Shown here piece by piece: positions 7,747-60,859 of a stretch of DNA of 64,000 bases (the first letter of the stretch is position 1; the number at the start of each line of letters is the position of its first letter). Position numbers and translations under genes: made by a program. The stretch lies in IMG/VR virus record IMGVR_UViG_3300020190_000004. The stretch is one strand, 5' to 3'. Below the pieces are notes generated by a model that was not told where the DNA came from, made no database searches, and saw only the letters and a program-made list of their open reading frames with translations. The DNA is from a virus (Duplodnaviria > Caudoviricetes).

Positions 7747-8226
7747 TTAGAAGAGTTTCATTAAAAGATCCCATAGATAGGTAATTGCACTGAATGTCCA
7801 TGTATCTAACTTAGTTAAGAAAAATGTTAATACGAAAATTAACCAGATAAAAACTTTCCAAACTGTTAAGTAACTAAAGATTGGCACATAAACTATCAAA
7901 AAAGAATTAGTATCATTTACTTGTTCGTAGGCAGGTGATACTGAGTAACCTAAGCCAATTTTATCAATGTAAAGGTTCATTGGTTTAAGTCTATCAGCGT
8001 ACTTAATTTTGAGTATCTCAATCGTGTCCCCGTCGTCTGTTGGGGACTGAGGATTAAGTACCGTGTATATGCGCCCAACCCAATCAGCTCTCAGATTAAA
8101 CGATTCCCAATCAGAGGTTTTTTTGTGTTTTCTGATAGTTTTCATTACGTATCTCCAATTACTTAAGTCTATCCACAATAGACGAAGACCTCTAGCCTTA
8201 AAGAAATTTTTTAACCATGTAATCAT
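7747..8226 (-). CDS. Hypothetical protein with C-terminal transmembrane segment
   Basis: 159 aa with hydrophobic YLTVWKVFIWLIFVLTFFL. Confidence 0.65.
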   Translation of the reverse strand: MITWLKNFFKARGLRLLWIDLSNWRYVMKTIRKHKKTSDWESFNLRADWVGRIYTVLNPQSPTDDGDTIEILKIKYADRLKPMNLYIDKIGLGYSVSPAYEQVNDTNSFLIVYVPIFSYLTVWKVFIWLIFVLTFFLTKLDTWTFSAITYLWDLLMKLF

Positions 8227-8834
8227 AATGCTTCTTGGTATTTTTTTAGTAACGCTGGATCTCTTTTGACAATTTCAGCCCTGATTAACCTGCGAGCTTT
8301 ATGTATGCGCGTTCTTACTGTATTTACTTTCCAGCCAAGATCTTCAGCGATTTCATCGTATTTCTTTTTCTCAACCTCACGAAGAGTAAGAACTTCTTTG
8401 TACATGTCTGGTAAGTTATTGATTTCTTCAAGAACGATGTCGTGTAATCTTTCAGTAGTATTTACAAATTCATCTTCAGCAAAATCAGGTATATCATAGC
8501 CCACTTTGGCTTCAACGTTGATACCCATCTCTTTCATTGCATCGTATGAATATGTTTTCTTTTTACTGCGGAAGAATAGCAAAGCTTCGTTGCGGGCGAT
8601 TCGGTAAACCCAAGTAGAAAAATTCCAATAAGGGTCGTATTGGTGAATTTTGCCCCAGACTTTGGCAAATGTAGTCGCGATAACTTCTTCACGATCGTCC
8701 ATGTTTGGTAGCATTTCTCGCAAGTACATACTGATACCAGGTTTCATTCTGTAGTAAACAGCGGTGAAGTCCTTTTCTGTGCGAGTTTCAAAAAAGTTAA
8801 GACCTATTCTTTGAAGTGTTTGTTTTTCGTGCAT
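8223..8834 (-). CDS. ECF-family RNA polymerase sigma factor (sigma-70 regions 2 and 4)
   Basis: Region 2: VIATTFAKVWGKIHQYDPYWNFSTWVYRIARNEAL. Region 4: LPDMYKEVLTLREVEKKKYDEIAEDLGWKVNTVRTRIHKARR. Confidence 0.9.
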   Translation of the reverse strand: MHEKQTLQRIGLNFFETRTEKDFTAVYYRMKPGISMYLREMLPNMDDREEVIATTFAKVWGKIHQYDPYWNFSTWVYRIARNEALLFFRSKKKTYSYDAMKEMGINVEAKVGYDIPDFAEDEFVNTTERLHDIVLEEINNLPDMYKEVLTLREVEKKKYDEIAEDLGWKVNTVRTRIHKARRLIRAEIVKRDPALLKKYQEAL

Positions 8835-8852
8835 ATATTATTTTTTGTTTAC

Positions 8853-8913
8853 AGTATAAAAATAACTAAAAATTTTCATATAGTAAACCATTTTTCTAAT
8901 AAGTTATTAACAA
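8853..8913 (-). promoter_or_regulatory. Variant host-type (Bacteroidota sigma-A-like) early promoter with upstream TGTTAATAAC box
   Basis: TTTA-N19-TATTTTTA-TACT plus TGTTAATAAC; resembles three better-conserved copies at 30611, 34085 and 60221. Confidence 0.5.
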
Positions 8914-8914
8914 C

Positions 8915-9385
8915 TTAGCGACGGTTTATTGTTGTGTAATAATCTTGGTAGAGAGATTTTATGTCACCGTACATAATGCCGTAATTGTCAAGTATTTGTA
9001 GGTGTTTAGTTTCGCGGTATTCTTCGATCCAGTATATGTACTTGAACCCAGCATTTACTAGGACTTTTGTACATACACTACACGGTGAGTGACTAAGTAA
9101 AACAATGTAGTTTTCAGGATCACTCTCACGAAATTTAGCTATCATGTTCACCTCTGCGTGAATGAACCCTGATAAACCAGGATCAAGTGATTCTTCCTCA
9201 GTACCTGTAGTGGAATTAATAGGCGCATCAGGAAAGCTTCCGTTGTAGCCAAAAGATGCTATCTTCTGAAACTTTCGGTGAACCGATATTGCGCCAACTT
9301 TGAGACGAGAAGACGTAGACAGCTTGGATATCTGTTCAAGTATATTTACAAACGTGTCTACCTTTTGAACTATTCGGGGGGTCAT
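8915..9385 (-). CDS. cd: dCMP deaminase (cytidine/deoxycytidylate deaminase family)
   Basis: Zn motifs HAE...SPCSVC, plus the KVGA and GYNG motifs. Confidence 0.9.
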   Translation of the reverse strand: MTPRIVQKVDTFVNILEQISKLSTSSRLKVGAISVHRKFQKIASFGYNGSFPDAPINSTTGTEEESLDPGLSGFIHAEVNMIAKFRESDPENYIVLLSHSPCSVCTKVLVNAGFKYIYWIEEYRETKHLQILDNYGIMYGDIKSLYQDYYTTINRR

Positions 9386-9390
9386 TCAGA

Positions 9391-9675
9391 CTATTTTGTC
9401 TCAGATTCTTCTGCTACCGGCTCAGCTGATTCTTGTGTTATTTCTTCCTTTGCTGATTCTTTAATTTGCGTAGGTAGAATTTGGAAAAATTCAGCTACTT
9501 CATTGTAAGGAAACTCCCCGACGAACTGGACGATTGAATTTAGTTCTTGTTCGCTGTAGTTAAAACCGTCACGGTTGATTAGGTTCATGTAAGGGAACAC
9601 TGCGGAAAATTTCTTAGTGTTCAAAAGAGCTGTTGCTCGCGTCTTAAACTCTGGGGTTACTGTGTAGTTTTTCAT
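9391..9675 (-). CDS. Hypothetical protein
   Basis: 94-aa ORF with an ECF-type promoter upstream. Confidence 0.65.
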   Translation of the reverse strand: MKNYTVTPEFKTRATALLNTKKFSAVFPYMNLINRDGFNYSEQELNSIVQFVGEFPYNEVAEFFQILPTQIKESAKEEITQESAEPVAEESETK

Positions 9676-9696: not shown

Positions 9697-9724
9697 GTTT
9701 ATATAACGGTTTTGTAAATAGTTC
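9697..9724 (-). promoter_or_regulatory. Putative ECF-type (middle) promoter GAAC-N17-TATAAA
   Basis: One of 12 intergenic (G/A)AAC-N17/18-TATAA elements. Confidence 0.65.
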
Positions 9725-10600: not shown

Positions 10601-10628
10601 ATTTATATTAAGATATTGAATTTAGTTC
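10601..10628 (-). promoter_or_regulatory. Putative ECF-type promoter GAAC-N17-TATAAA
   Basis: Matches the recurring bipartite motif. Confidence 0.6.
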
Positions 10629-10663: not shown

Positions 10664-10699
10664 AAAAAAGAATGAGGTATGAGTTAATACCCATACCTC
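10664..10699 (-). terminator. Rho-independent terminator
   Basis: 11-bp stem GAGGTATGGGT/ACTCATACCTC (one G-U), 4-nt loop, followed by ATTCTTTTTT. Confidence 0.7.
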
Positions 10700-17512: not shown

Positions 17513-17848
17513 TTAGAAAAACTTCGGCATACTCGGCATACTCGGCATACTCGGCATACTTGGCATTTTAAAGCTTCCGGGGTTAAAGCTTGATGATTGC
17601 GCCCATGAAGGTAAACCTTGGTTAGCGTTTCTCATCATATCAGCAGCTCCGCGTCTAGCATCATCCATGCCGCTAGTGGATTGCTGTTCTTTTTCCTGTT
17701 GCTTTCTGGATTCATTTTCCCTTTCGTTCCAATTCTTAAGGTTGTCCATCAGCATTTCTGCTCTCCAAAATTCGAAGCGATCAAGCTCAGACGGTTGAAG
17801 ACGAAGAATTTTAAGCATGAGGAACTCAACCTCAAACCAATTCTCCAA
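17513..17848 (-). CDS. T4 gp51-like baseplate hub/tail assembly protein (possible TTG start at 17848, or a frameshift extension of the upstream gene)
   Basis: SLENWFEVEFLMLKILRLQPSELDRFEFWRAEMLMDNLKNWNEREN resembles small gp51-like proteins that follow gp26 in T4-like cyanomyoviruses. Confidence 0.55.
   Translation of the reverse strand: MENWFEVEFLMLKILRLQPSELDRFEFWRAEMLMDNLKNWNERENESRKQQEKEQQSTSGMDDARRGAADMMRNANQGLPSWAQSSSFNPGSFKMPSMPSMPSMPSMPKFF
17524..17559. repeat. 9-bp tandem repeat x4 (TCGGCATAC) encoding (MPS)n
   Basis: Visible tandem repeat at the 3' end of the gp51-like gene. Confidence 0.85.
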
Positions 17849-18845
17849 AGATATCTGAAATAAGGAAAATAGACTTGACTCCTGACTGAAAGTTAAGCGG
17901 AGCAGTGGCCTCCGTCCCACTCATTGAACGATAGCGAACTTGCGGTTTAACCGAAGATGCTAGCATGTCAACTAATTTATCCATAACGGAGATCTTTTGC
18001 AATGACCATGTATACGATTCTTGCACAGCTTTATCATACACATTCTGATTAACACTTTTCCAATCCGGAAAAAGAAAAGGTGCGTACTTAACGAAAGATT
18101 TATCAAAGTTTGTACCGCTTTGTTGACGTTGCTTTAAGTAATTCTTGATGAATAGCATTGTTCCAAGAGACGGTAAATACATTTTGAAATTTTCACCGTT
18201 TTTCATACGAATATCAAAGCAACGATCGTTGTTATCAAAGTAATTCATTAATCTCTCATCTGCATTAAAGTAATCAATAACATCTTTAGTTACTTCTACT
18301 CTTTCTTCAAGACCTTCATCATTAGTAACAGTTACAAACATTTTATTTTCACCGTTCTTAAATGTATAGTCACGAATAGCAAAGATTAGATAGAAACGGT
18401 CAATTTCCTTTAGATCTTTGTATGTACCGGGTTTACCAGGCACTTTAATGCGAGCACACTTATCAACAATAAAGTTAAGCATGTCATCAACACCTAATAA
18501 GTCATTTTCGTCTATCGTTGACCAGTGGCGTATCTCAGCAACTGATGCAGAACGAATAGCAACTTGTGTCCCCGGTTCGTAAAACATACCCCCTGATGGT
18601 AGGTTTTCTAATGGAACAGTTTTCCAACCAAGCTCATTAGCAATTGGATCTTCTTCCTCATAAATTTTGAACTTCTCTGCTTTACCAAGTGAAGTTGGTT
18701 GTGCAATCAGAACGGGATCTTCTGCAACAGTTTCAACTTCAACTTTTTTAGCAGCAGCGGCAGCAGCAGCTTCTTCTTGCTGGGCAAGTAATTTGGCTTC
18801 TCGTTCAATCTGCTCTTTAAAGTCGTTGTTTTGTTCTTCTGACAT
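17832..18845 (-). CDS. T4 gp26-like baseplate hub assembly/tail chaperone protein
   Basis: LPSGGMFY...VAIRSASVAE...DLKEIDRFYLIFAIRDYTF pattern; located between tube and tape measure genes. Confidence 0.65.
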   Translation of the reverse strand: MSEEQNNDFKEQIEREAKLLAQQEEAAAAAAAKKVEVETVAEDPVLIAQPTSLGKAEKFKIYEEEDPIANELGWKTVPLENLPSGGMFYEPGTQVAIRSASVAEIRHWSTIDENDLLGVDDMLNFIVDKCARIKVPGKPGTYKDLKEIDRFYLIFAIRDYTFKNGENKMFVTVTNDEGLEERVEVTKDVIDYFNADERLMNYFDNNDRCFDIRMKNGENFKMYLPSLGTMLFIKNYLKQRQQSGTNFDKSFVKYAPFLFPDWKSVNQNVYDKAVQESYTWSLQKISVMDKLVDMLASSVKPQVRYRSMSGTEATAPLNFQSGVKSIFLISDIFGELV

Positions 18846-18863: not shown

Positions 18864-18891
18864 ATTATATATCCATTGGCAAGAAAAGTTC
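18864..18891 (-). promoter_or_regulatory. Hybrid promoter: GAAC-N18-TATAAT overlapping GATATATA
   Basis: Both recurring motifs coincide (GATATATA at 18866-18873). Confidence 0.55.
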
Positions 18892-28820: not shown

Positions 28821-29924
28821 TTAAAGTTTGAATTGCGAGAAGATATCTGCCTCAAAGGTACGAGTTCCGCTGATAAAGCGAGTACCTTCAAGTATAAAGT
28901 TCATGTCGTAATTGTGAGCGCTTAAGATTAAAGTATGTTCTTTTTCATAAGCAGCTTTGAATTTCTCGACAATCTCAGAAGGAATTACCCGCTCATCAAG
29001 AAAGACCAACTGTAAGTTTCTCTCTAGTCTGCTCTTAACAGCCTCGGTAGGAGCAACTTGCTTACATGTTGAATTGATACCGTTAGAGATCTCAAGTGCT
29101 CTGTTTGGCAAGTCATACACATCGGTAATAGGTTTAACCATTTGCATCACTTCATAGATACGAGCAGCTTTGGATGGTGTAACCCTATAGGTTTTTCCCT
29201 TGTTCTCCCATGTCCAGATTGACGGAACAGTATCTCCGGCGTCACCAATGATTACTTTCTCAAAGATAATGTAATCAGGGTCAATTTCTTCTATAGGAAT
29301 TGCAGAAGCAGCCTCGGCAATTAAGTCTTTGCTGCGGTTCATAAATGTTGAAGCATCAAATAGATCATAGTCTTCTTTCTTGAGCCATTCAGAAAAACCT
29401 TTAGGCGCCACGATCTTGCGGCTCTTAGAGTTTGGGTTGTAAACAACGATAAAGTTTTTACCATTACATTTGATACATTGAGTCAAGTCTTTGTCACCGG
29501 TAATGATAATAGCATCTTCGCCTTGTTGAAAAAGTTTTTCTGCCCATAGGTACATCAAGTCATCGCCTTCAGCGCGTTCTTCTTTAGAAACAATGATACC
29601 TTTTTTCTTTAGGATAGCACCAAACTCATTCATGCATTTATAGAATGCGTCCCAATCAATAACAGACTCGTCTTTCTCGCGATTGGTTTTGTAACCACCT
29701 TCTTCAATAAGAACTTCTTTTCTCCAAGACTTAGAGTCAATGGTAAAAATGATACGGCTGGGATTGCCAAACGAACGAATAGCGTGAGTCATGTCAGTCG
29801 CGATTTTGCGAATGAACATTTCTTGGTCAGTGTCAGTGCTTAATACTTTACCTTTCTTTGCGTAGCTGCCAAAAATGAAAAGCGTTTTATAGAACAAGTA
29901 GTTCCCGTCGAATATAAGATTCAT
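28821..29924 (-). CDS. rnh: 5'-3' exonuclease / RNase H (T4 rnh, PolI 5'-nuclease family)
   Basis: LIFDGNYL, FTIDSKSWRK, AEGDDL, ITGDKDLTQ, IGDAGDTVP. Confidence 0.9.
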   Translation of the reverse strand: MNLIFDGNYLFYKTLFIFGSYAKKGKVLSTDTDQEMFIRKIATDMTHAIRSFGNPSRIIFTIDSKSWRKEVLIEEGGYKTNREKDESVIDWDAFYKCMNEFGAILKKKGIIVSKEERAEGDDLMYLWAEKLFQQGEDAIIITGDKDLTQCIKCNGKNFIVVYNPNSKSRKIVAPKGFSEWLKKEDYDLFDASTFMNRSKDLIAEAASAIPIEEIDPDYIIFEKVIIGDAGDTVPSIWTWENKGKTYRVTPSKAARIYEVMQMVKPITDVYDLPNRALEISNGINSTCKQVAPTEAVKSRLERNLQLVFLDERVIPSEIVEKFKAAYEKEHTLILSAHNYDMNFILEGTRFISGTRTFEADIFSQFKL

Positions 29925-29937: not shown

Positions 29938-29967
29938 GTTTTATATACCGCGAATGTACTATAGTTC
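29938..29967 (-). promoter_or_regulatory. Putative ECF-type promoter GAAC-N18-TATAAA
   Basis: Recurring bipartite motif. Confidence 0.65.
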
Positions 29968-30610: not shown

Positions 30611-30681
30611 AGTATAAAATTAACCAATAAAAACTTACAATGCAAACTTTAGTGAAACTTTTTTCAAAAAGTTATTAACAA
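30611..30681 (-). promoter_or_regulatory. Host-type (Bacteroidota sigma-A-like) early promoter element
   Basis: TGTTAATAAC...GAAAAAAGTT...TTTG-N20-TAATTTTA-TACT. Confidence 0.7.
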
Positions 30682-32140: not shown

Positions 32141-32168
32141 GTTATATTCAAAAAGTATACTATAGTTT
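32141..32168 (-). promoter_or_regulatory. Putative ECF-type promoter AAAC-N18-TATAAC
   Basis: Recurring bipartite motif. Confidence 0.6.
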
Positions 32169-44247: not shown

Positions 44248-44672
44248 TAGAATAGTCTTTTAATTTTTCGTTTGGAAAAGATATGATACTTGGTATCAAG
44301 TTCTCTTAGAATTCTTTCTTTATGAACAGGCGCTAATTCATTATAGAGAACCTCATAGGGAATGCTCATAAACTCGGCTATGTTAATGAATTTATCAATA
44401 GCCGATATGTCAGCGTTATCAGGAAGTCTTTCTTCAAAGTAATAGTAAATGTTGGCAGCCTCACTCTTGGAAACTTTCTTGCTCTTCGAGAACTCTTCGT
44501 AGTATACTGATGTTAAGAATATCTGATAGATATCTTCTTGCAGTTGATTTTCTACAAACTCGTCATGTGCGTCTTTAGAAATAAATTCTGACTTAGCACT
44601 TATCTTACCAAAGATTTCGTACTCAATCTCACCTGTGTTGAATTTGTTATTAAAGATTTTGTCTTCTTTCAT
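44247..44672 (-). CDS. Hypothetical protein
   Basis: 141-aa ORF coupled between helicase and gp47. Confidence 0.65.
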   Translation of the reverse strand: MKEDKIFNNKFNTGEIEYEIFGKISAKSEFISKDAHDEFVENQLQEDIYQIFLTSVYYEEFSKSKKVSKSEAANIYYYFEERLPDNADISAIDKFINIAEFMSIPYEVLYNELAPVHKERILRELDTKYHIFSKRKIKRLF

Positions 44673-45973
44673 TAGTCATTGATTATTTGTGAGTCCAGAT
44701 CTTCGATTATTCTCATTAGGTCATAATTAATTAAGAACTTTTTTCTACTGTTTTTGTAACCATCGTCACGGTTTGCGATTAGTTTTAATGTGTACTCGCG
44801 GTTTGCGTGCATTACTTCATCTTGTATGATACCAAACATAGCGTCCACTGTGTGACCGAGCGCAGAAGATTCTGAAATGTTTGTTGCATTTAAGTCAGTG
44901 CTTCCAAAACCGCTACGGTTAACCTGTGTGGCTGTAATGACTGCCCAATCATTTCTCATTGCCATAGCTCTTAAATCTTCAGCAATTTGTTTGATCTTCA
45001 TGTACATATTCTCAGTATTAGGATTTCTCCAGTTCTTAAGTATGTTTACATAATCAAGAACAATTACCTTAAACTTAAAGCCTTTTAACTCTTCCATTTT
45101 TTTAAGCCACATTTCAATATCGGGAACGCCTGCAGCTGAAGTTGGAAATTCTTTAACGTAAAGTTTGCCTGGGACCTGTAAGCTATCATATCCTACGTTG
45201 GTAAGTTTCTTTTTCATGCCCACAGAGTCCTCAGCATTTTTACCATACTCTCTCATTGTGATACCAAGTAAGTTTGCACCAAGACGTTTTACAACTTTTC
45301 TATCTCTCATTTCAAGGGACAAGACGGCAGTGTTGTAACCTAATCTTACGCTGTTAGCAGCCATGTTAGCAAGCCAGATTGACTTACCAATCTTCATTTC
45401 ACCGATAAAACAAAAAAGTGCTTTAGAGTAAAACCCACCGCCAAGTACAAGGTCAACATAAGGAAAACCGGAGCTAAATGTATCTGTAGTGGGCTGATTA
45501 TGAGAGTCAGGATTAAAGAAATCAAGGCCTTCATCAAAACCAAACTGTATGTTGTTTCTGTCATTAATTAGAGACTTGGCGGTTTGTACAACTTCTTTAA
45601 CATTTTCAGCGTTAATGCTAGTAGTCTTTAAGTATGAAATAAGATCATAAACCGATAGGTCAAGATTCTTATATTCTATCCAAGCTTCTGAAGATTCTCT
45701 TAGCCATTCTTCATCATATTCGCTTAGGTCATTTTCAAAAAGAAGATGAATTTTGGACTCAGTCAAGTCTTCTTGCAGCCCTCTTGTTTTAGTAATTTCA
45801 ACTACTTGATTTTTTGTTGGTGCTTTTCCGTACCTGCCAATAAATTCTACTGATAAGTCATATATCTTTTTAATGTCTTCTGACTCAAAGAAGCGAGGCT
45901 TTACAATGTTTGTAAGCTCTTTCTTGTCCATCAAGTAATGATAGAATAATTTTTCTAAATGTGTTGATACCAT
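44672..45973 (-). CDS. gp41: Replicative DnaB-like helicase (T4 gp41-like)
   Basis: Walker A GEMKIGKS, LSLEM, VLDYVNI, TATQVNRSG, ISESSAL. Confidence 0.95.
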   Translation of the reverse strand: MVSTHLEKLFYHYLMDKKELTNIVKPRFFESEDIKKIYDLSVEFIGRYGKAPTKNQVVEITKTRGLQEDLTESKIHLLFENDLSEYDEEWLRESSEAWIEYKNLDLSVYDLISYLKTTSINAENVKEVVQTAKSLINDRNNIQFGFDEGLDFFNPDSHNQPTTDTFSSGFPYVDLVLGGGFYSKALFCFIGEMKIGKSIWLANMAANSVRLGYNTAVLSLEMRDRKVVKRLGANLLGITMREYGKNAEDSVGMKKKLTNVGYDSLQVPGKLYVKEFPTSAAGVPDIEMWLKKMEELKGFKFKVIVLDYVNILKNWRNPNTENMYMKIKQIAEDLRAMAMRNDWAVITATQVNRSGFGSTDLNATNISESSALGHTVDAMFGIIQDEVMHANREYTLKLIANRDDGYKNSRKKFLINYDLMRIIEDLDSQIIND

Positions 45974-45979: not shown

Positions 45980-46006
45980 GTTATATACATCTTGGATAAA
46001 TAGTTC
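45980..46006 (-). promoter_or_regulatory. Putative ECF-type promoter GAAC-N17-TATAAC
   Basis: Recurring bipartite motif; only 6 nt from the helicase ATG. Confidence 0.6.
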
Positions 46007-48237: not shown

Positions 48238-49416
48238 TTAGAATAGTTGTGTTTTGACGATTAGTTCCGGCGAAAGCGCTGGTAAGCCAGTTGCTGCAAT
48301 GAATCGGTTAATTGGGTCAATGATACATTTTGCAAATTGTATGTCATAGTTAATAGGTGGAGCAATTTCTATCGGGTAGTTTCCAGGTAAGTAAGCAAAT
48401 ACATTTTCACCACCTTCGTTGTTCTTTGCATAATAGTATCTTACCTTATCTCCGCTTTTAATTAGCTGATACTTCCCTTTCCATTTGCTGTTATTTAATA
48501 AGTAATTGTGGAATCCTGCTGCGCGAGCGTGCATGGGACAGTGGTCATTAATGATAAACCGTTTACGGTCTTCAGATATTGCTTTTTCATAATCATTAAC
48601 ACTGGCCGACATAGAGATATTTTCAATGTTATCAAGCATAAAGGCTTCTTTTTCTCGCTTCAGCAAATCAGCAAATTTTCTCATGTTGAGTTTGTTTCTT
48701 TCTCTGAAGATTATTTTCAAAAGTTCTTTAAGTTTGTTACGAGCAAATAGAGGAGTTGAAGATTGAACAATTTCAACTCCAACCGCTTTGATTTTGTGCA
48801 AAGAATCATAGTATATACCGTCACCTGTGCCGTCTTTCCAAGAAAGATCCAAACAGTACTTTTTCTTTTTTAACAAGATTGCGGAGTAAGAGATAGTTTC
48901 CATTTCCAAAACCTGAATGTTTTCGGTACCAGTTTTCTCAGCATAAGACTTGTAAGCTTTCTCGATGTATTCTTTTATACGATGCTTATAGATTAGTTTA
49001 AGTAACTGGCGAGGGTCGCCTTCCCAATCACAGCCTCTAACCACATCTTCAAAAGTAATGTAACAAGAGTCAGTATCACCGTAGATGGAAACTTCTTTGT
49101 TTATTTTATTAACTTGGTTAAGACCTATGATTTTATGAAGCTCTTTATCACGATGCCAAAATTCAAGGAAGTAACGGTTAAAGATCTGTGCGGCAAATGC
49201 TCTTACCTCTTGTCCTTGCAGCGTAATTGCTTCAGCTACTTTTACATTATACCCGATAAAGTATGGAGAAGCAGTTGCACCGTATACTGAGTTAATGAAA
49301 ATCTTAATTGCTTGTTCCTCATTTTTCTTGAGATTCATAAGAACTTCCAAACGATTTATCTCTGCAATTATTTCTTCCCGACTTGAGGTCTTAGGATCAA
49401 TTCTGCAGTTCTTCAT
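48238..49416 (-). CDS. Family B DNA polymerase, C-terminal half (fingers helix, palm, thumb)
   Basis: Motif B KIFINSVYG and motif C YGDTDS; lacks motif A and the exonuclease domain. Confidence 0.95.
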   Translation of the reverse strand: MKNCRIDPKTSSREEIIAEINRLEVLMNLKKNEEQAIKIFINSVYGATASPYFIGYNVKVAEAITLQGQEVRAFAAQIFNRYFLEFWHRDKELHKIIGLNQVNKINKEVSIYGDTDSCYITFEDVVRGCDWEGDPRQLLKLIYKHRIKEYIEKAYKSYAEKTGTENIQVLEMETISYSAILLKKKKYCLDLSWKDGTGDGIYYDSLHKIKAVGVEIVQSSTPLFARNKLKELLKIIFRERNKLNMRKFADLLKREKEAFMLDNIENISMSASVNDYEKAISEDRKRFIINDHCPMHARAAGFHNYLLNNSKWKGKYQLIKSGDKVRYYYAKNNEGGENVFAYLPGNYPIEIAPPINYDIQFAKCIIDPINRFIAATGLPALSPELIVKTQLF

Positions 49417-50181
49417 CTAATCAGCTTTTCCTATAATCATTTTTGTTTCAGACTCAATAGAGTGGAATATAAGACGGTCTTCATTCATGTATACCATCAA
49501 GTCTTCTTTGTCAAGATATGCAAACTGAGATTTGTAAACAGATACGTTTACTTCGATATCTTTGTTTTCAACCGAAAGCAAGTGCTTGTTAAAGCTTTTT
49601 CCACTTGCAGCAACTTCGCCATCTTTAAGGTTAAATGAAAGCAATTTTTGATCAGAGTCAATACTTGATAGAGCATTTACTTGAGATTGCAATTCTTTTG
49701 TAAGAACGAAGTTTACTTCAGCAGAAGCAACATCACCGATACGATCCATCATTTCATCTGTAATGTGTGTGAATAAACGAAGAGTTGCACATTGAAAGTT
49801 AATTTTAAGTGAGTCATTTTTTAAGATGATATCAGTACCAACCGTTCCGTCTGCTGTTTTTTCTGTAAACAGATTAAAAGTAACTTCAGATCCTTCAAAG
49901 TGAGAGAAAGATTTGATAAGTTTGTCAAGTGAGTAAACACCTAAGATAACCGGAGAAGTTACATCTTCAGGATTTGAGAATACCCGGCTAAGTTCGATTT
50001 TTGAAGACTTGACTACACTTCTTTCAGGCGTGTGAGTTTTTGCTTTTAAGTATTCGCTGTCGATTTCGATTAGAAGACTTCCTGAGATTGATGAGAATCG
50101 CTTAAGAAAGTTAGTTAGTTCCGCTGTTGATGTTAACTTGAGTTCCAGCTTTTGTGCAGTTGTTTTTTCTAATGTTTCCAT
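49417..50181 (-). CDS. gp45: Sliding clamp (T4 gp45-like)
   Basis: 254 aa; FLKRFSSISGSLLI...GVYSLDKLIKSFS pattern; abuts the PolB C-half. Confidence 0.75.
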   Translation of the reverse strand: METLEKTTAQKLELKLTSTAELTNFLKRFSSISGSLLIEIDSEYLKAKTHTPERSVVKSSKIELSRVFSNPEDVTSPVILGVYSLDKLIKSFSHFEGSEVTFNLFTEKTADGTVGTDIILKNDSLKINFQCATLRLFTHITDEMMDRIGDVASAEVNFVLTKELQSQVNALSSIDSDQKLLSFNLKDGEVAASGKSFNKHLLSVENKDIEVNVSVYKSQFAYLDKEDLMVYMNEDRLIFHSIESETKMIIGKAD

Positions 50182-50201: not shown

Positions 50202-50230
50202 GTTTATATTCAATACTTAATAATTAGTTT
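50202..50230 (-). promoter_or_regulatory. Putative ECF-type promoter AAAC-N18-TATAAA
   Basis: Recurring bipartite motif. Confidence 0.6.
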
Positions 50231-50862
50231 TAGATGATTTGGTCAATTAACCCATACTTTAAGCAAGTCTTTGCATTCCACCAAATGTCTTTTGATAAGA
50301 TGTTATCCATTTCCTTTTCTGGTATTTTAGAGTTTTCTTTGTACCAATCTTTTATGGATTTCATAATGTTTGCGTTGTTGGACATTTCTTCTTTAAGTTC
50401 GGAGTATTTTCCCCACCCACCGTTTCTTAGCTCATGTACAAGCATGAAAGCATTCTTTCGCATTAAGCGTTTAGTTCCTGCAATAGAAGCAAAAGTGGCT
50501 CCTGACGCAGCGCAGCCTTCAACAATGGTTACGATTGGTACTATGGCGCTGATTCTTTGTATCGTATCAGCCATAGCAAAAGCTGAAAAGACTTCTCCGC
50601 CATAAGAATTAATGTGTAACCAAATAGGAGAGGGTTGACCAACTTCATGCATGCTTGAGAATGCTGTCGGCGCAAGACGCATTGATAGGTCTTGTAGTAT
50701 TGCATTTAATTTCAAGGCTGATGCAGGTGTGATAGGCGCATAAAACCAAATATGATCGCCAACTACTTTGATGTCATGATAGTTGTATAAATTTTCGCCG
50801 TCTTCGTCTTCATCACTTCTTTTAACAGGTATTCCTCTGTTATTCATCGGTGTCTTCTTCAT
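50230..50862 (-). CDS. clpP: ClpP-like serine protease
   Basis: LHINSYGGEV, GCAASGAT (catalytic Ser), MLVHE (His), DIWWNAKTCLKYGLIDQI. Confidence 0.85.
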   Translation of the reverse strand: MKKTPMNNRGIPVKRSDEDEDGENLYNYHDIKVVGDHIWFYAPITPASALKLNAILQDLSMRLAPTAFSSMHEVGQPSPIWLHINSYGGEVFSAFAMADTIQRISAIVPIVTIVEGCAASGATFASIAGTKRLMRKNAFMLVHELRNGGWGKYSELKEEMSNNANIMKSIKDWYKENSKIPEKEMDNILSKDIWWNAKTCLKYGLIDQII

Positions 50863-52297
50863 CGTTATTTGTGTTTGAGAATACTTCTATTCCGTCGATT
50901 TCTTCTTCTTCGGAAAATAAGTCAGTTATTGAATTTGTTCTGTTTTGTGTAGCTCTTTTCATAGAAGTATCTTCCATAGATTCGTAAGCCTTAATTGCTT
51001 CTGTGAGTTCAATTCTTTGCTTTTCAATATCAGTGGTAAGTTCTATAATCTTATTATTGGTTCTTGTAAGTTCATCCTCGGAGAGGGATCTCAATAAGAT
51101 AGCATTTAATCGACGCCTGATAGTATCAGCGTTAGGAACACCTTTGGTTATTTTGTTAAGAAATTCATCGATTTCTTTTTCATTCCACATTTCTTTTTTC
51201 TTTTCAATCATGAATGTAAGATATTGTACTTTTCTCTTTAAGAATTCAAGTTCATCTGTGTTGATATTAAAGAAGTACGTTAGTCGCTTAACGCGCAAGT
51301 CTGCCAGCCGGTAACGATAGTCAGTAATGTAGTCTTCAACTCTTTCGTACTCAAGAACAAGACCGTCTTTTACAAACACTGGGGTTTCAGTTACCAGCAT
51401 TTTAACCGACTTGTTAACTGCGTCTAAGAAAGATTCCCACTCAGCAGTGTTGCCTGTAAACTTAAGTAATATGTCAATGTTAGTTGAAGAGTTGTTGGTT
51501 AAGCGAACGCTTGGGTAACTTGTAAGAACGCTATCTAGTTTCTTTAAGAAAGCACCGTATCTCATAAGAGGAGGCAATTCAGTAACTCTGATAGTCTTTT
51601 CTTTTTCGTTCTTTTCAAGTACACCTTCAATTAACCAAGTTTTGTTCATACCCTTAAAGCGAGTAATTTTACCAGTGAAACCTTTGAATTTGGGATGTAC
51701 TTCTTTAGCTTTGCCGTCTAGGAATTTTTGAATATCTTTAAGATCTCGCGGCAAGACTGTAGTTTTGTAACCAACCGCAATACCTACGATTGTGTTTGTA
51801 AGACCTATCGGTAAATCTACCCATAAAGGATTCCAAGATCCTTCTTCATTCTTGTGATTTAAGAAATCACTCTTTCTAATCATCTCAGATATCGCAGGGT
51901 TTATCTTAACAGAGGTATATCTTGCTGCAGATGCTTCCTGATTGATAGGGGTTCCAAAGAACCCGTCGCCTACCAGTAATTGCTCACTATTGCCAAATGG
52001 TCGAGCAAGTTTGTTTATCGCACCAGTTAGAGACTTGTCACCGTGATGGTAACCGTCACTGATACAAGATCCTACGAGTGATATGGTTTTGTTAAAGTTT
52101 GCAGGAGCATTTACCATTATGAAACGCTGTACGTTTGTTAGTCCATCGTAAAAGGATGGGATTCCTCGGTTTTCTAAAACATACAATGCGTAGTTTCGAA
52201 AGTTTGTATCTATTTGCCGGGAAATGTTTAGCGGATATGCTTTCTTCTTCAAGATACTTAGGGTTTTAATTTTGTGTTTTATATACACAAAGGGCAA
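50840..52297 (-). CDS. gp52: Type IIA topoisomerase, cleavage subunit (T4 gp52/GyrA-like); true start possibly TTG at 52252
   Basis: IPSFYDGLTNVQR, YHHGD, catalytic AARYT. Confidence 0.9.
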   Translation of the reverse strand: MPFVYIKHKIKTLSILKKKAYPLNISRQIDTNFRNYALYVLENRGIPSFYDGLTNVQRFIMVNAPANFNKTISLVGSCISDGYHHGDKSLTGAINKLARPFGNSEQLLVGDGFFGTPINQEASAARYTSVKINPAISEMIRKSDFLNHKNEEGSWNPLWVDLPIGLTNTIVGIAVGYKTTVLPRDLKDIQKFLDGKAKEVHPKFKGFTGKITRFKGMNKTWLIEGVLEKNEKEKTIRVTELPPLMRYGAFLKKLDSVLTSYPSVRLTNNSSTNIDILLKFTGNTAEWESFLDAVNKSVKMLVTETPVFVKDGLVLEYERVEDYITDYRYRLADLRVKRLTYFFNINTDELEFLKRKVQYLTFMIEKKKEMWNEKEIDEFLNKITKGVPNADTIRRRLNAILLRSLSEDELTRTNNKIIELTTDIEKQRIELTEAIKAYESMEDTSMKRATQNRTNSITDLFSEEEEIDGIEVFSNTNNDEEDTDE

Positions 52298-52305
52298 CCA
52301 AGTTC
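52276..52305 (-). promoter_or_regulatory. Putative ECF-type promoter GAAC-N18-TATAAA
   Basis: Recurring bipartite motif. Confidence 0.65.
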
Positions 52306-56483: not shown

Positions 56484-58286
56484 TTAGATCCTCCCTTCTA
56501 ACCAACGTTTTCTCTTGTCAGCAGAATTTCCAAAGGCAATTTCCATGTATTTGCCAGCTGAACGATCTATGCGAATCTTAAACATCTTGCGTTCTGCCAT
56601 AACCATTTCCCAGTCTTGTATACTCAATGAACCTAACCCTTTAAGATAACGAACATTTTTGTAAGGAGTTCCGCTTTTCTCAAACTCGCCCCACTCATGA
56701 AGAGAATAGAAGTATTGTCTTTTGTTCTTAACTTCAGCAGAAACAAGCGGAGTAATTAAGATATGAAGTTTGCCAGTTTCAATCACTTGTGGAAACCACT
56801 TATAGAACAAGTTAATCACCAACGAAGCGATGTGACCTATTCCATCAGGGTCCCAATCGGTAGAGATGACAACGTTTGAGAATGCACATTTACTTCCGTC
56901 TCGTGGTTCAAGGTTAAGAATGTTCATCAAGTCAATGATTTCATTATTAGAACTCAAGTCACTTAAGTTTCTTGCGTTCTTAATCTTGCCCTTTAACGAA
57001 TACACTGCATCAATCCGCGGATCTCGTTTCTGTAAGATTGAACCCATAGCTGAAGAACCTTCAACTATGAAAAGAGATCCTTTGCTTTGTGAAGGCGGAA
57101 AGTACTTATCGCTTATGCGTTTGCTTGCAGCTTTCTTCTTGTTCTTGATGTTTTTAAGATCTTGTGTTTGAGTTCTTTCATCAATCAGTTTACGAACAGT
57201 TTCGTAAAACTTAGTTTTCTTGAGAGACTGATTAATCTTTTTGTTAAAGTCAGTCAGTAAGTGCTGTATTTCCCAACGACCTGCCGCGTACTTGGTTTTG
57301 TTTTGGTCAGCAAAACGAACCAGCTTAGGTGGAAAGTTAAGAATAAGAAGAGTCTCGTAAAAGTGATGAGCTAATGTATAGTCAAAGATGTCATTCACCC
57401 AGTCAGTAAAAATCTTTTGGTGAATACCCGTACATATAGCGCCGTTTACGAATGAAGCAGATGTTGCATTTTCGTATCGATTCCATATCACAAACATTCC
57501 CATCTTGCCCTTAAACACAATCGCGTCTTCTGGCAAGAATGACTGGTTAAGTTCAAGTTTTGTGTTGTCAAAGAAGAACTCAATCTCCAAGTTACTGATA
57601 ACAGGGTCTTGATTCTTTAAGAACTCCCGAAAGATGAACATGGTGTGTAAGTATTCTTTATCCCAAGTACATCCTTTGAAAATGTCAGTGCGTGGAATGT
57701 ATCTTACAGTAGTACCCGTTTGTGAATTGCGTTTTTTCTTGTCAGTGGTTTCTCGTTTTTTCTCAAAGCGGTTCCACTGAATGTTGTACTCTATTTCATT
57801 GTTAATTGTGGTAATAACAAATTCTTCCGAAAGCATGTTCACAAGAGCAGCACCCACTCCATTAGTACCAATTAAAGAATCATTTGAGTTTTCATTATAG
57901 AAGTTTGAACCAGCTCTTAACATTGACATTGCTGTCTCAACGTTGGATTGCCCTGTCTTTGTGTTTGCCTTTTCAGCGTTAATGAATCCGCCACCAGTGT
58001 CGGTTACTTCTACTTCATTATTTTTTGAATTAATCTTAACGATGATTTTAGGCATTACGCCCTTCATTCTCTTTGCTTCATCAAAAGCATTGTCAACGAT
58101 TTCATTAAACATCTTATAGAATCCTACAGATATGATCTTGTTCTTTGCAACAAGTTTTCCATTCTCCACGATCTGTACGCTTTCTTCAGATTTCTCAACC
58201 GAACCAATATACATGGTTGGTCTGTGTGTCACATGTTCAAAATCTGATAGTGCTACAATTTCTTTGTTAGATTTTTGTTTTGTCAT
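56484..58286 (-). CDS. Type IIA topoisomerase, ATPase/TOPRIM subunit (T4 gp39+60 / GyrB-like)
   Basis: EHVTHRPTMYIGS, EIVDNAFD, GTNGVGA, VEGSSA, LKGKIKN, TDWDPDGIGHI, YLKGLGS. Confidence 0.95.
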   Translation of the reverse strand: MTKQKSNKEIVALSDFEHVTHRPTMYIGSVEKSEESVQIVENGKLVAKNKIISVGFYKMFNEIVDNAFDEAKRMKGVMPKIIVKINSKNNEVEVTDTGGGFINAEKANTKTGQSNVETAMSMLRAGSNFYNENSNDSLIGTNGVGAALVNMLSEEFVITTINNEIEYNIQWNRFEKKRETTDKKKRNSQTGTTVRYIPRTDIFKGCTWDKEYLHTMFIFREFLKNQDPVISNLEIEFFFDNTKLELNQSFLPEDAIVFKGKMGMFVIWNRYENATSASFVNGAICTGIHQKIFTDWVNDIFDYTLAHHFYETLLILNFPPKLVRFADQNKTKYAAGRWEIQHLLTDFNKKINQSLKKTKFYETVRKLIDERTQTQDLKNIKNKKKAASKRISDKYFPPSQSKGSLFIVEGSSAMGSILQKRDPRIDAVYSLKGKIKNARNLSDLSSNNEIIDLMNILNLEPRDGSKCAFSNVVISTDWDPDGIGHIASLVINLFYKWFPQVIETGKLHILITPLVSAEVKNKRQYFYSLHEWGEFEKSGTPYKNVRYLKGLGSLSIQDWEMVMAERKMFKIRIDRSAGKYMEIAFGNSADKRKRWLEGRI

Positions 58287-58324: not shown

Positions 58325-58351
58325 ATTATATTACAGTAAAGATTAAAGTTC
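58325..58351 (-). promoter_or_regulatory. Putative ECF-type promoter GAAC-N17-TATAAT
   Basis: Recurring bipartite motif. Confidence 0.6.
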
Positions 58352-58379: not shown

Positions 58380-60206
58380 TTATATTTCGCTGTATAAAAG
58401 AACTTTAACACCTTTGGATTGAGCAGTTCTCATTTTAGAACTTGTTGATCCTAAATCATCGGTAAACAATACTTTAGCTTCATTTAAACTTGTGTGATGA
58501 TAGCCTTTGGACTTAGCGTAAATTAGGAATTCTTCTTTGGTCTTGAATCCAGCTGACTTCGGTGAACCTGTGAATTCACAGCCTATCGAGTCAACAGCAA
58601 TCCTTTCAGGAAGAGTTATCTTGATGTAAGGGGACAAGCTCTCAACCATCATGTTATATTCTTGGCGGCGTTTACCTCCTAATTCAAATCCCGCGATTAC
58701 ATCTTTCTGTAAACCGGAGAAACTGTAATCAATACCCGCGAGGTAGTTGCCAATTTGCTTTGCTGTAGTCCAACCCATACCGTCAACTCCCATAAGCATA
58801 ACAAGATCTCGCGGTTTGAGTTCAGAACATTTCTCAATTTCTTTGAATAGGTTATCTAGTGTTTTTCCTGCCTTAAAGAATCCTGAACCTATAAGCGTTT
58901 CTTTGCTCATCTTGGTTGGGTTTAGCAAGTCAGCAGGATTCTTAATACCTGCTTTCCAGATTAGCTTTGTCATAGCACCACCAACACCGTCAAGACCTAA
59001 AACATTAACACCGTTATGAAACTTATACCAGGATTTGATTTCACAATTCTCATTTTCACACATTAGGTGGATTCCTTTTACTACAAGTTTGCTTCCGCAC
59101 TTACAAGATTCTGGGTGTTGAAAACCTGCGGTATCTCCAGCAACTACTACTCGAGTAATCTGCGGTATGATATCACCAGATTTTGCGATAGCAACCACAG
59201 CACCAGGAACGGCGCCTTTTTCTTTAAGATAGCCTAAGTTAAATAGAGCAGCGCGAGAAACCGTAGAACCATCAAGATCAACAGGTTCCATTACAGCTAC
59301 TGGAGTAACCTCTCCAGTCTTTCCGTATTGCCAAGATATGCTCTTGATTTTTGTGATTGCTTCTTTAGGAGGAAACTTGATGGCAACCGCCCAGTTAGGA
59401 TCGTGAGAGTTTTCACCCCAAGCAGATCGCAAGCCTTCAGGCGCTTTGATTACAAAACCGTCAAGTTGGTAATCCGAGTTTTTGCGATACTCAACCATAT
59501 CATCATATGCTGATTGAAAGTTTTCAATTCCGCAGTAAAAAGTATGAGCAGTATGTTTGAACCCTGAAATTCTCGGGGCAATATAGCGAATCTCTTCATC
59601 AATATGTTGCCTTACCTCAAGAGGGATAAAGTCAAGATCCGCAAGTATTGACGGCGAATTGTCATCGCGATTAAGAACACCAGCAACATAGTTACGAGGA
59701 TTCTTAAAAGTTGCGTATTTCTCATTGAATGTAGATACTTTAATTACCACTTCACCGCGTACTTCAACGATTCCTTTAAGATCTATAGTCTCCGGTATGT
59801 TATGTTTTACCTTGTCAGTAATATCGCGCCCTTTAGTTCCGTTACCGCGAGACAGTACTTGTAGAAGTTTACCGTCTTGATAGATTGCGTTACCTGCATT
59901 TCCATCATATTTAGGTGTTACCTCAAAGGAAGTAGCGCCAAACTTGTTCATCCAGTTTGTAGCAGATTCTACTGGTGCTGCACCTGATAAACTTGCTTGA
60001 TACTTAGCAAGAGATAACATTGGTGATGGGTGAGAATACTTTGCTTTGCGATCCTCAGCACCCACGATATGTGGAGCATCAGAACCCATACTGATTAGTT
60101 CTTGTTCAAGAGAGTCAAATTCATCATCAGATAAAACAGATTCACCAGAATAGTATGCCTCTTTGGCTTGAAAATAAAGTTGTTCTAACTCGAAGCGATT
60201 ACTCAT
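58380..60206 (-). CDS. ligA: NAD-dependent DNA ligase with C-terminal BRCT-like domain
   Basis: HPSPMLSL, TPKYDG, SRGNG, EVRGE, NPRNYVAG, DGFVIK, AIKFPP, TGEVTPVA, KSGDIIPQI. Confidence 0.95.
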   Translation of the reverse strand: MSNRFELEQLYFQAKEAYYSGESVLSDDEFDSLEQELISMGSDAPHIVGAEDRKAKYSHPSPMLSLAKYQASLSGAAPVESATNWMNKFGATSFEVTPKYDGNAGNAIYQDGKLLQVLSRGNGTKGRDITDKVKHNIPETIDLKGIVEVRGEVVIKVSTFNEKYATFKNPRNYVAGVLNRDDNSPSILADLDFIPLEVRQHIDEEIRYIAPRISGFKHTAHTFYCGIENFQSAYDDMVEYRKNSDYQLDGFVIKAPEGLRSAWGENSHDPNWAVAIKFPPKEAITKIKSISWQYGKTGEVTPVAVMEPVDLDGSTVSRAALFNLGYLKEKGAVPGAVVAIAKSGDIIPQITRVVVAGDTAGFQHPESCKCGSKLVVKGIHLMCENENCEIKSWYKFHNGVNVLGLDGVGGAMTKLIWKAGIKNPADLLNPTKMSKETLIGSGFFKAGKTLDNLFKEIEKCSELKPRDLVMLMGVDGMGWTTAKQIGNYLAGIDYSFSGLQKDVIAGFELGGKRRQEYNMMVESLSPYIKITLPERIAVDSIGCEFTGSPKSAGFKTKEEFLIYAKSKGYHHTSLNEAKVLFTDDLGSTSSKMRTAQSKGVKVLLYSEI

Positions 60207-60220
60207 TGATTTTTAATTAT

Positions 60221-60291
60221 AGAATAAAATTAACCAAAATAATCATATAATGCAAACTTTTAAGCAACTTTTTTCTAAAAGTTATTAACAA
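60221..60291 (-). promoter_or_regulatory. Host-type (Bacteroidota sigma-A-like) early promoter element
   Basis: TGTTAATAAC...TTTG-N20-TAATTTTA-TTCT. Confidence 0.7.
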
Positions 60292-60733
60292 TTCTTTCTA
60301 GGTTTTCTGATCGCGTAAGTATTCGCCACGTCATATCATACAGCTGCTCTACAGTCGCAACAAATTCTATCCCGGGTTTATTCCACTCGTGTGGAGCAAT
60401 AAGAGACAAGAAAAGAGTGTTATCATCACGTGTATACAGATGATATACTTCACCGGCATCTGGTTTAAAGTTAAACTTTGCACGATACACCAAGAGGGAG
60501 ACTAATCTTCTTTCTTCTAGTTCTGTGTATTGCTTTTTAAGAAGTTCAACTTGCTCCAAAATTTGTTTCTTTTGCATCTCAACTTGCTCGTTCATGGCGG
60601 CAGCTGACTTGCTCAAGATAACACCCATTTCAGTAGGTCTGAATGCAGGTGCACTTATGTTATGCCCATAAGGAAGTAAGCCGGGATATACCGGCATCAT
60701 GTTCTCGTCCTTTTGCGTAGGATCTTTTTCCAT
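60275..60733 (-). CDS. DUF2452 family protein (likely start MEKDP at 60733)
   Basis: LLPYGHNISAPAF...QILEQVELLKKQ...AKFNFKP..GEVYHLY......FLSLIAPHEW. Confidence 0.75.
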   Translation of the reverse strand: MEKDPTQKDENMMPVYPGLLPYGHNISAPAFRPTEMGVILSKSAAAMNEQVEMQKKQILEQVELLKKQYTELEERRLVSLLVYRAKFNFKPDAGEVYHLYTRDDNTLFLSLIAPHEWNKPGIEFVATVEQLYDMTWRILTRSENLERIVNNF

Positions 60734-60734
60734 C

Positions 60735-60819
60735 TTATTTAATTTGATGGTCATCTACAGCCATCGCATGTTTGCTTTTCATTATACCAGCAATTTCCTC
60801 AAAAGAATAAATTTGCCAT
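60735..60819 (-). pseudogene. Possible internally deleted gene remnant (metallophosphoesterase-like termini)
   Basis: ATG-MANLFF-stop, then out-of-frame YSFEEIAGIMKSKHAMAVDDHQIK-stop abutting the next ATG. Confidence 0.3.
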
Positions 60820-60822
60820 GTA

Positions 60823-60859
60823 GTTTATATACAACAAAGGCTCTGGAGTTCCCAGAGCC
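60823..60859 (-). promoter_or_regulatory. Terminator-like hairpin (GGCTCTGG/CCAGAGCC) whose loop carries the GAAC of an ECF-type promoter
   Basis: 8-bp stem 60839-60859; GAAC-N18-TATAAA at 60823-60851. Confidence 0.6.

Follow-up and report, generated by a model that had tools for sequence, protein, structure and literature searches.

By what means the replication genes of a T4-related phage might be switched on is the question raised by a 64,000-nucleotide (nt) stretch of the virus record IMGVR_UViG_3300020190_000004 (Caudoviricetes), referred to below as the window. The window encodes a sigma factor of the extracytoplasmic function (ECF) type, here sigma-1, and carries upstream of its DNA-replication genes a recurrent two-box element (class B) with the consensus A(G/A)AACT-N15/16-(T/A)ATATAA(A), alongside two further motif classes, one of host type (class A) and one consisting of a single box (class C). 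MotA/AsiA is limited to a subset of T4-related phages, and to our knowledge the middle transcription of those outside the enterobacteria is poorly understood. The reading favored here, with a probability of roughly 60%, is that sigma-1 would read class B as the middle step of a cascade leading from the host sigma through a phage sigma to a late sigma.

The class-B element is specific in strand, spacing and position. The pattern [GA]AAC-N17/18-TATAA matches 14 times on the coding (minus) strand of the window compared to 2 times on the plus strand, while dinucleotide shuffles (n=300) give 3.5 ± 2.0 matches with a maximum of 10. Spacers of 17 and 18 nt account for 5 and 9 sites, respectively, and every other spacer from 8 to 30 nt yields 0-3. 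Unbiased enumeration of 4-mer dyads in 28 upstream regions places AACT-N16..18-(A)TATAA at the top rank. A position weight matrix (PWM) trained on the sites of relatives alone and then run on the window recovers all 14 matches (scores of 15.4-24.2; 17.8-24.2 for the 12 sites upstream of genes), the next best score being 11.6, and finds no match on the other strand of the window. Constraint extends beyond the search pattern to an A ahead of the -35 box, a T and T-rich run after AAC, and an A on both sides of TATAA, so that all 65 non-identical sites have the -10 (T/A)ATATAA(A). The end of TATAA lies 7-70 nt from the first start codon of the gene or operon at 11 of the 12 sites (165 nt, to portal, for the site at 36001-36027), and some sites directly follow terminator-like hairpins. 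The annotated targets of class B are replication or nucleotide genes in 8 of 8 cases and those of class C virion genes in 6 of 6 (Fisher p = 3e-4). These features support a role of the bipartite element as a putative promoter class for the replication and nucleotide genes.

The element is also conserved. Among 24 viral contigs fetched by protein search with sigma-1 (orthologues 37-70% identical) every one carries the class-B motif, with 90 matches on the strand that codes for the sigma against 7 on the opposite one and 15 at control spacers. The motif stands ahead of the same orthologues from contig to contig, including the gene for a 94-amino-acid (aa) protein (22/24), the operon of a 95-aa protein and guanylate kinase (gmk), and a 337-aa gene, and the two boxes are kept while the spacer sequence varies. 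Scans of whole records give 27 vs 5 matches by strand in a 238-kb relative (G001) and 20 vs 1 in a 202-kb relative (G002), with reversed-pattern controls at 1-10 matches. Two related phages without a sigma-1 orthologue show no clear motif enrichment, matching the co-occurrence: the complete Tenacibaculum phage PTm1, which has no sigma4-bearing sigma, gives 9 matches vs 12 in the control, and LR756500, which by portal protein is the closest deposited relative, has sigma-1 homologues of only 26-27% identity and is weakly enriched (61 matches vs 39).

Sigma-1 has the domain make-up of a group 4 sigma. Pfam matches to Sigma70_r2 (residues 31-93, 4e-11) and Sigma70_r4_2 (residues 132-182, 4e-15) are separated by ~38 residues, and neither Sigma70_r3 nor r1 is matched at E <= 0.01. 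The protein scores 69.4 bits against the curated sigma70-ECF model TIGR02937 (cut-off 42.9) and lies below the cut-off of every NCBIfam subfamily or equivalog model, a Bacteroidota ECF family and SigW being the best partial matches. The best PDB matches are B. subtilis SigW and E. coli sigmaE, aligned end to end. Both of these read AAC-containing -35 boxes, and the structure of sigmaE has been solved on its -35 element (PDB 2H27). The sigma4 helix that recognizes the -35 box (sigma-1, VNTVRTRIHKAR; E. coli sigmaE, VGTVRSRIFRAR; B. subtilis SigW, VGTVKTRIHRGR) is sigmaE/sigmaW-like in sigma-1 (NTVRTRIHKAR), and neither this helix nor the sigma2 loop YDPYWNFSTW varies across 17 orthologues, in parallel with the invariant DNA boxes. 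The family has at least 198 members, all metagenomic and on contigs of up to ~318 kb; the sigmas of Lak phages are only 22-23% identical to sigma-1. The candidate class-B promoters have an ECF-like geometry, with an AAC -35, a T-rich run and 17/18 nt from AAC to TATAA: an AAC -35 box is common to many cellular ECFs, often with a T-tract beside it (PMC5758882). Classifications of ECF sigmas expressly omit those of phages (PMC7826278).

The original prediction, which had named the product of 8223..8834 a phage ECF sigma factor with a 12-member regulon, stands in most of these respects. The sigma call is confirmed by the r2 and r4_2 domains and by the TIGR02937 score, and the 12 element positions all exist to within 1-3 nt, on the coding strand and upstream of genes; the two further matches of the pattern (34081-34107 and 37915-37940) were rightly not counted among them. 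The downstream genes named (gmk, RNaseH/5'-3' exonuclease, gp44, gp41 helicase, the C-terminal part of the family-B DNA polymerase (PolB) and both topoisomerase II subunits) were correctly called, and the assignment of gp45 is borne out by the predicted fold of the product of 49417..50181, a sliding clamp. The number 12 holds for the window, but the relatives carry 20-27 sites genome-wide.

Sigma-1 is assigned to class B because of the co-occurrence of the two, the sigmaE/sigmaW-like helix, the ECF-like geometry and the T-tract. The proposed pairing of proteins with promoter classes, the temporal order and the feedback would be as follows. Host RNA polymerase with the host primary sigma would transcribe the early units from class A, the sigma-1 gene included. 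Sigma-1 would then join the host core polymerase and direct it to class-B promoters, its sigma4 helix reading the AAC box and its sigma2 domain (loop YDPYWNFSTW) the AT-only -10. Class B would head the genes for the clamp and C-terminal part of PolB, clamp loader, helicase with gp46/47, RNaseH, both topoisomerase subunits, gmk and dCMP deaminase, and additionally an operon reading into sigma-1 (positive feedback) and the gene for a second ECF-type sigma. The virion genes would use class C, read by a 114-aa gp55-like sigma.

Several points weigh against this assignment. The TATAA -10 of class B is unlike the CGT or (G)TC type of ECF sigmas, characterized cellular ECFs having a CGT-type -10 (PMC5758882, PMC9723704), and the late class C has the same ATATA core, both signatures being carried by the site at 18865-18891. 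Class A, not class B, directly precedes the sigma-1 gene, and classic ECF autoregulation would be only indirect; class B directly precedes the gene for the second ECF-type sigma, the textbook signature of a cognate sigma. For the co-occurrence argument there are two outgroups, and the completeness score of G001 is only 84%. Finally, all of the promoter evidence comes from DNA sequence alone, with start sites predicted.

The second ECF-type sigma, sigma-2 (199 aa, P0163), is encoded outside the window, adjoining a Ro60/TROVE gene (L042:5956-6600), and shares the 238,241-bp longest contig with the sigma-1 of the window; it is also found in G002 (L030). Its gene is preceded by a terminator-like hairpin and then, at 18 nt from the ATG (6 nt in G002), by a canonical class-B element. 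Direct self-promoters are the usual route to ECF target prediction (PMC7826278), and sigma-2 is a serious rival as the reader of class B, in which case it would be autoregulated while sigma-1 reads something else or primes the system. We nevertheless consider this improbable. Sigma-2 is 24% identical to sigma-1, and its helix, DVWYKLQRGR (DVWYK(I/L)), is without the TVR(S/T)RI residues of sigmaE/sigmaW type that sigma-1 keeps; G001 has its 27 class-B sites and no sigma-2, its sole match in the search being its own sigma-1. Sigma-1 is preferred over sigma-2 for these two reasons. Furthermore, for sigma-2 to be expressed in the first place, class B would have to be read by some other factor, and the contigs that carry the motif without exception were selected through sigma-1. 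Sigma-2 is treated here as a putative target of class B, which would give the cascade at least one more tier.

Class C, GATATATA(C), is a single box without a -35, of which 11 copies lie on the coding strand of the window and none on the other. All copies are intergenic, 2-45 nt ahead of gene starts, and their annotated targets encode portal, neck, tail sheath, tail tube and a 2073-aa virion protein. The class is presumably read by the gp55-like protein, a minimal sigma with a weak match to Sigma70_r2 and orthologues 72-81% identical in the relatives; a gp33 co-activator was not recognized in the window. The ATATA core common to (T/A)ATATAA and GATATATA(C), the same distance of both to start codons and the two signatures at 18865-18891 would also fit class B as a variant of the late promoter, with the gp55-like protein reading the -10 and a separate AAC-binding factor advancing or boosting the replication genes. 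However, the two classes split cleanly by gene function, the strict 17/18-nt spacing from AAC, combined with the T-tract, has the geometry expected of a two-domain sigma, gp55-type sigmas have no sigma4 and class C no -35, and the window itself encodes a two-domain sigma whose helix is of the AAC type, making this variant still less probable than reading by sigma-2.

No class-B promoter is securely tied to the gp55-like gene itself, which is separated by 8 nt from an upstream open reading frame (ORF) and lacks its own intergenic region. The sole candidate is intragenic (37915..37940). This match recurs in 3/5 relatives, coincides with the conserved peptide GVYNSETD, and is lost from 2/5 relatives in which a synonymous TAT>TAC change breaks the TATAA; it is probably a by-product of the GVYNSETD coding sequence. 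Thus of the cascade originally proposed, from host sigma to ECF sigma to gp55, the outline holds and the gp55 tier is present as the gp55-like sigma (37312..37656) and a separate late class GATATATA(C), but the step from ECF sigma to gp55 has no promoter tied to it and an extra ECF tier has to be added.

Class A is found in four copies in the window, ahead of the ligase gene, two small genes and sigma-1. The unit spans ~65 nt and ends in TTTG-N20-TAATTTTA, its -7 box ending 18-22 nt ahead of the ATG. It matches the primary-sigma (sigmaA) consensus of Bacteroidota, TTTG-N19/20-TAnnTTT(G/A) (flavobacterial -33/-7, with the -7 box TAnnTTTG; PMC9723704), not that of E. coli, and a scan for E. coli-type sigma-70 promoters shows no enrichment (13 vs 12.6). 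Of the 21 loci read in relatives, 17 show the box TAnnTTT(G/A) ahead of the sigma gene, some as exact TATATTTG or TAATTTTG; the TTTG-N19/20 spacing was counted in five (three relatives and two window copies). The sigma gene had been predicted to sit behind a host-type promoter, and this is what the Bacteroidota sigmaA-type match and the class-A-type element in most relatives indicate. In three of the four window copies, all but the one ahead of sigma-1, the -7 box is additionally preceded at ~45-70 nt by the inverted repeat AACTTTTT-n-AAAAAGTT. The repeat arms co-vary in relatives (for example AACTTTTAG/CTAAATAGTT), and a dimeric regulator may use the repeat as its operator to control early genes. 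A class-B-like match at 34081-34107 was rejected as a chance match within a 65-nt class-A element.

The host primary sigma might also be appropriated as in T4, reading the class-B -10 with an unrecognized phage activator bound at GAACT as the analogue of MotA/AsiA. T4-type middle promoters provide the precedent, and two conserved small proteins flank the sigma-1 gene. However, the class-B -10 (WATATAA) is without the TTTG half of the Bacteroidota -7 box TAnnTTTG (PMC9723704) that class A carries, and appropriation would leave a conserved phage ECF sigma without a promoter set. MotA and AsiA have no match among the ~70 window ORFs (PHROGs, Pfam and NCBIfam), and family searches in five relatives gave nothing, a weak negative since control genomes equally gave nothing and a positive control is thus lacking; the replacement of the MotA/AsiA middle mode, also part of the original prediction, is to that limited extent upheld. 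We regard appropriation as very unlikely. Even less likely is the reading of class B by an ECF sigma of the host, such as an envelope-stress sigma induced by infection, with the phage sigma otherwise employed: an AAC -35 is widespread among cellular ECFs (PMC5758882) and flavobacteria carry several of them (PMC9723704), but the host ECF motif of Flavobacterium has a CGT -10 rather than TATAA (PMC9723704), and the class-B motif occurs across phages in step with the phage sigma. That the elements are not promoters but signals for translation, RNA processing or replication, a view for which the purely sequence-based promoter role leaves room, is the least likely of all given the bipartite form, the fixed 17/18-nt spacing and the position just ahead of operons' first genes, in some cases after terminator-like hairpins; an RNA structure is unlikely because the spacer sequence is not conserved.

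A wider proposal can be put forward tentatively, at less than even odds. A widespread freshwater clade of T4-related Bacteroidota jumbo phages would have replaced MotA/AsiA by a cascade of at least four sigmas, in which the ECF -10 has evolved to ATATAA. Host sigmaA (class A) would possibly be followed by sigma-1 (class B: replication, its own operon and sigma-2), and this by sigma-2, with a target class of its own, and gp55 (class C). The ATATAA -10 would, on this tentative view, be one undescribed for cellular ECFs; an AT-only -10 may suit DNA with hypermodified cytosines.

Table 1. Positions of predicted promoter elements and associated genes in the window. Scores are those of the PWM trained on relatives; targets of promoters are predicted.
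Feature	Position	Strand	Spacer or sequence	PWM score	Target, evidence or context
Sigma-1, 203-aa ECF-type (group 4) sigma	8223..8834	minus			Pfam, TIGR02937 and PDB matches
94-aa conserved protein gene	9391..9675	minus			First gene of the putative class-B operon through dCMP deaminase (8915..9385) into sigma-1
159-aa protein, C-terminal membrane segment	7747..8226	minus			Start overlaps sigma-1 stop (ATGA)
gp55-like minimal late sigma, 114 aa, sigma2-only	37312..37656	minus			phrog_234 'late sigma transcription factor', 3e-13
Class-B promoter	9699..9724	minus	17	23.8	94-aa gene, dCMP deaminase and, by read-through, sigma-1
Class-B promoter	10603..10628	minus	17	20.4	95-aa gene and guanylate kinase; terminator 10674..10699 ahead
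Class-B promoter	18865..18891	minus	18	22.2	337-aa gene 17832..18845
Class-B promoter	29941..29967	minus	18	24.2	RNaseH/5'-3' exonuclease 28821..29924
Class-B promoter	32142..32168	minus	18	20.1	gp44 clamp-loader operon 31169..32122
Class-B promoter	32852..32878	minus	18; -35 GAACC	20.0	DUF4385 gene 32375..32839
Class-B site	36001..36027	minus	18	19.5	No ORF directly behind; upstream of class-C box of portal
Class-B promoter	45981..46006	minus	17	17.9	gp41-like helicase 44672..45973, then gp47/gp46 nuclease genes
Class-B promoter	50204..50230	minus	18	20.2	Sliding clamp 49417..50181 and PolB C-terminal part 48238..49416
Class-B promoter	52279..52305	minus	18	17.8	Topoisomerase II subunit gene, ORF 50840..52297
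Class-B promoter	58326..58351	minus	17	22.5	Topoisomerase II large subunit 56484..58286
Class-B promoter	60825..60851	minus	18	19.2	DUF2452 gene 60275..60754
Class-B-like match, intragenic	37915..37940	minus		17.3	284 nt upstream of gp55-like gene, inside ORF
Class-A promoter of sigma-1	8857..8914	minus	GTTAATAAC..TTTA-N19-TATTTTTA		Sigma-1, 22 nt before ATG
Class-A copy	60225..60289	minus	TTTG-N20-TAATTTTA and upstream inverted repeat		NAD-dependent DNA ligase 58380..60206
Class-A copy	34089..34153	minus			99-aa gene 33768..34067; includes chance match 34081-34107
Class-A copy	30615..30679	minus			117-aa gene 30240..30593
Inverted repeat copies (class A)	60266-60283, 34130-34147, 30656-30673	minus
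Class-C boxes	3439-3446, 7728-7735, 17455-17462, 18866-18873, 19548-19555, 23445-23452	minus	GATATATA
Class-C boxes	27988-27995, 35859-35866, 39896-39903, 41472-41479, 56471-56478	minus	GATATATA

Individual class-B sites (Table 1) differ in conservation and context. The element at 9699..9724 is the most conserved class-B position among relatives, and that at 10603..10628 also lies upstream of the orthologues there. The hybrid site at 18865..18891 has a GAACT -35 at the correct spacing, while its -10 reads GATATATAA and overlaps a class-C-like box; it precedes the orthologue in 8 relatives and is directly preceded in the window by a hairpin and T-run, and through this hybrid promoter the 337-aa gene may be active in the middle as well as the late phase. 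The orphan site at 36001..36027 is not conserved in the relatives, where the spacer region is missing, and is lineage-specific. Between it and the class-C box of portal lie ~130 nt (35866-36000, minus strand) that are free of ORFs and not found in relatives; they could represent a lineage-specific insertion or encode a small RNA. The ATG of the helicase gene is only 7 nt from the class-B TATAA (45973-45981, minus strand), so that the mRNA would be leaderless or nearly so. The longest ORF of the topoisomerase subunit starts at a TTG (52297) that falls inside its own class-B promoter, and the true start is probably the in-frame TTG at 52252, 26 nt past TATAA. Family profile scans of the clamp gene gave no match, and its identity comes from fold prediction (predicted local distance difference test score, pLDDT, of 92): of at least 500 PDB matches, the listed top 50 are all sliding clamps (PCNA, 9-1-1 and pol III beta). 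A class-B element also stands ahead of the clamp orthologues in G002 and G004. The polymerase gene behind the clamp gene is split, its C-terminal part (48238-49416, minus strand) lying ~14 kb from the N-terminal part (63720-63989, minus strand), which matches polymerase profile positions 400-495 and leaves the window at its right edge.

The sigma-1 gene belongs to a conserved module with its two small neighbors. The 94-aa orthologue is present in 23/24 relatives, 22 of which have the class-B site ahead of it, and the 159-aa gene follows sigma-1 directly, and translationally coupled, in 24/24. The 159-aa protein matches no family profile, those of anti-sigma families included; its position suggests a candidate anti-sigma or co-factor. 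The sole coding-strand terminator in the region from 7000 to 11300 is that at 10674-10699, just ahead of the 10603-10628 promoter. Since none lies between 9699-9724 and sigma-1, transcripts can read through the 94-aa and dCMP deaminase genes into sigma-1, and such read-through would provide positive feedback on sigma-1 on top of the early class-A input.

The source is an uncultivated T4-related jumbo phage of lake water. Scanning of ~70 window ORFs against PHROGs, Pfam or NCBIfam gives a T4-type gene set, with every long ORF on the minus strand. Ribonucleotide reductase, NAD ligase, two topoisomerase II subunits, a split family-B polymerase, UvsX, gp41 helicase, gp46/47 nuclease, gp44 clamp loader, RNaseH, gmk and dCMP deaminase make up the replication and nucleotide genes, and portal, head-closure and neck proteins, terminase, tail sheath, tail tube and tail fiber the virion genes. 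A nucleotide search with a 4.9-kb stretch of the window found no match among deposited phages. The window DNA is found in lake-water metagenomes only (24 runs, all DNA), and the nearest records of the portal protein are huge metagenomic phages, Prevotella Lak phages and Tenacibaculum phages. Leaders are generally A-rich and without a Shine-Dalgarno sequence, as in Bacteroidota. A copy of the G001-type clamp protein (P0297) is filed at NCBI under the name of a metagenome-assembled genome (MAG), 'Bacteroidota bacterium'; a G001-type phage contig may have been binned with a Bacteroidota genome, which would be soft support for the host phylum, or the label may be a binning artefact. The host is most likely a member of Bacteroidota because of the class-A match to the Bacteroidota sigmaA consensus, the A-rich leaders without Shine-Dalgarno sequence, the nearest phage relatives and this MAG label. 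In a separate observation, a late gene of 527 aa ends in ...TTA AAA AAA AAG CAA TAG (38288-38300, minus strand), and the -1 frame is open for 62 codons past this end into the ORF 38129..37665 (region 37665-38287, minus strand). The upstream-frame peptide and a run of A8-9 followed by G (A_AAA_AAG, a dnaX-type slippery site) are kept in five relatives (L034-L038), and the site probably directs a programmed -1 frameshift, or transcriptional slippage, to give a ~740-aa fusion protein.

If sigma-1 reads class B as proposed, temporal classes could be assigned from sequence for hundreds of genes of uncultivated Bacteroidota phages, an ECF sigma with an unusual AT-only -10 would join the orthogonal sigma/promoter pairs, and a multi-tier cascade would be shown to accommodate a gp55-type late system together with full-length phage sigmas. 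The proposal offers a testable alternative to MotA/AsiA, a phage ECF sigma with a compact consensus that is readable across genomes, its value being limited by the kind of evidence and by the uncultivated phage.

Well-documented phage sigmas that redirect the host core polymerase include gp28 and gp33/34 of SPO1, gp55 of T4 and gp36 of phiEco32. In the cascade of the Bacillus phage SPO1, gp28 serves the middle and gp33/34 the late genes. The cascade proposed here would likewise define temporal classes by successive phage sigmas that replace the host sigma, but SPO1 is of an unrelated lineage with unrelated sigmas and is without a gp55-type, clamp-coupled late system. T4 uses MotA/AsiA appropriation for its middle promoters and then gp55, gp33 and gp45 for the late TATAAATA promoters. 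The window resembles T4 in its replication and virion gene sets, in three promoter classes with the same partition and the clamp gene in the middle class, and in a gp55 homologue with a single-box, AT-only late promoter. Unlike in T4, MotA/AsiA was not detected, the middle promoters have their own -35 and -10 for what is predicted to be a complete alternative sigma, the late box is GATATATA(C) rather than TATAAATA, and gp55 is only 114 aa. The T4 transcription programme is partly covered by Iyer et al. 2021 (PMC7824862), who report that group-2 (T4-related) jumbo phages, Lak megaphages included, carry minimal as well as 'complete' sigmas. The phage described here belongs to the same supergroup and similarly combines a minimal gp55-type with a fuller sigma; those sigmas are close to RpoD and were given without promoters or regulons (PMC7824862), whereas here the sigma is of ECF type and accompanied by a conserved motif and gene set.

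Salmonella phage 7-11 encodes a sigma, gp47, with the bipartite promoter GTAAtg-N16-aCTA, and gp47 and phiEco32 gp36 resemble sigma-1 in having sigma2 and sigma4 homology and a bipartite promoter of fixed spacing (PMC8948821). These phages are enterobacterial podoviruses in which the sigma drives late (7-11) or middle and late (phiEco32) genes, while sigma-1, known here from its sequence, would serve only the middle class of a T4-related, myovirus-type jumbo genome that keeps a gp55-like sigma, and the class-B consensus is unrelated to theirs. With sigmaE and sigmaW (PDB 1OR7, 2H27, 5WUQ; PMC5758882) sigma-1 shares two domains and a near-identical sigma4 helix pattern, and class B shares with their promoters an AAC -35 followed by a T-tract and ~16-18 nt to the -10. 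It differs in a TATAA rather than CGT/TC-type -10, in the lack of a recognizable anti-sigma domain among the proteins found, in scores below the NCBIfam subfamily cut-offs and in a predicted regulon of phage replication genes instead of envelope stress genes. Set beside these systems, the apparent novelty lies in an ECF-type sigma of a T4-related genome paired with a conserved, genome-wide class of putative promoters on replication genes, in the atypical all-A/T -10, and in evidence pointing to a multi-tier cascade with a second ECF-type sigma and gp55.

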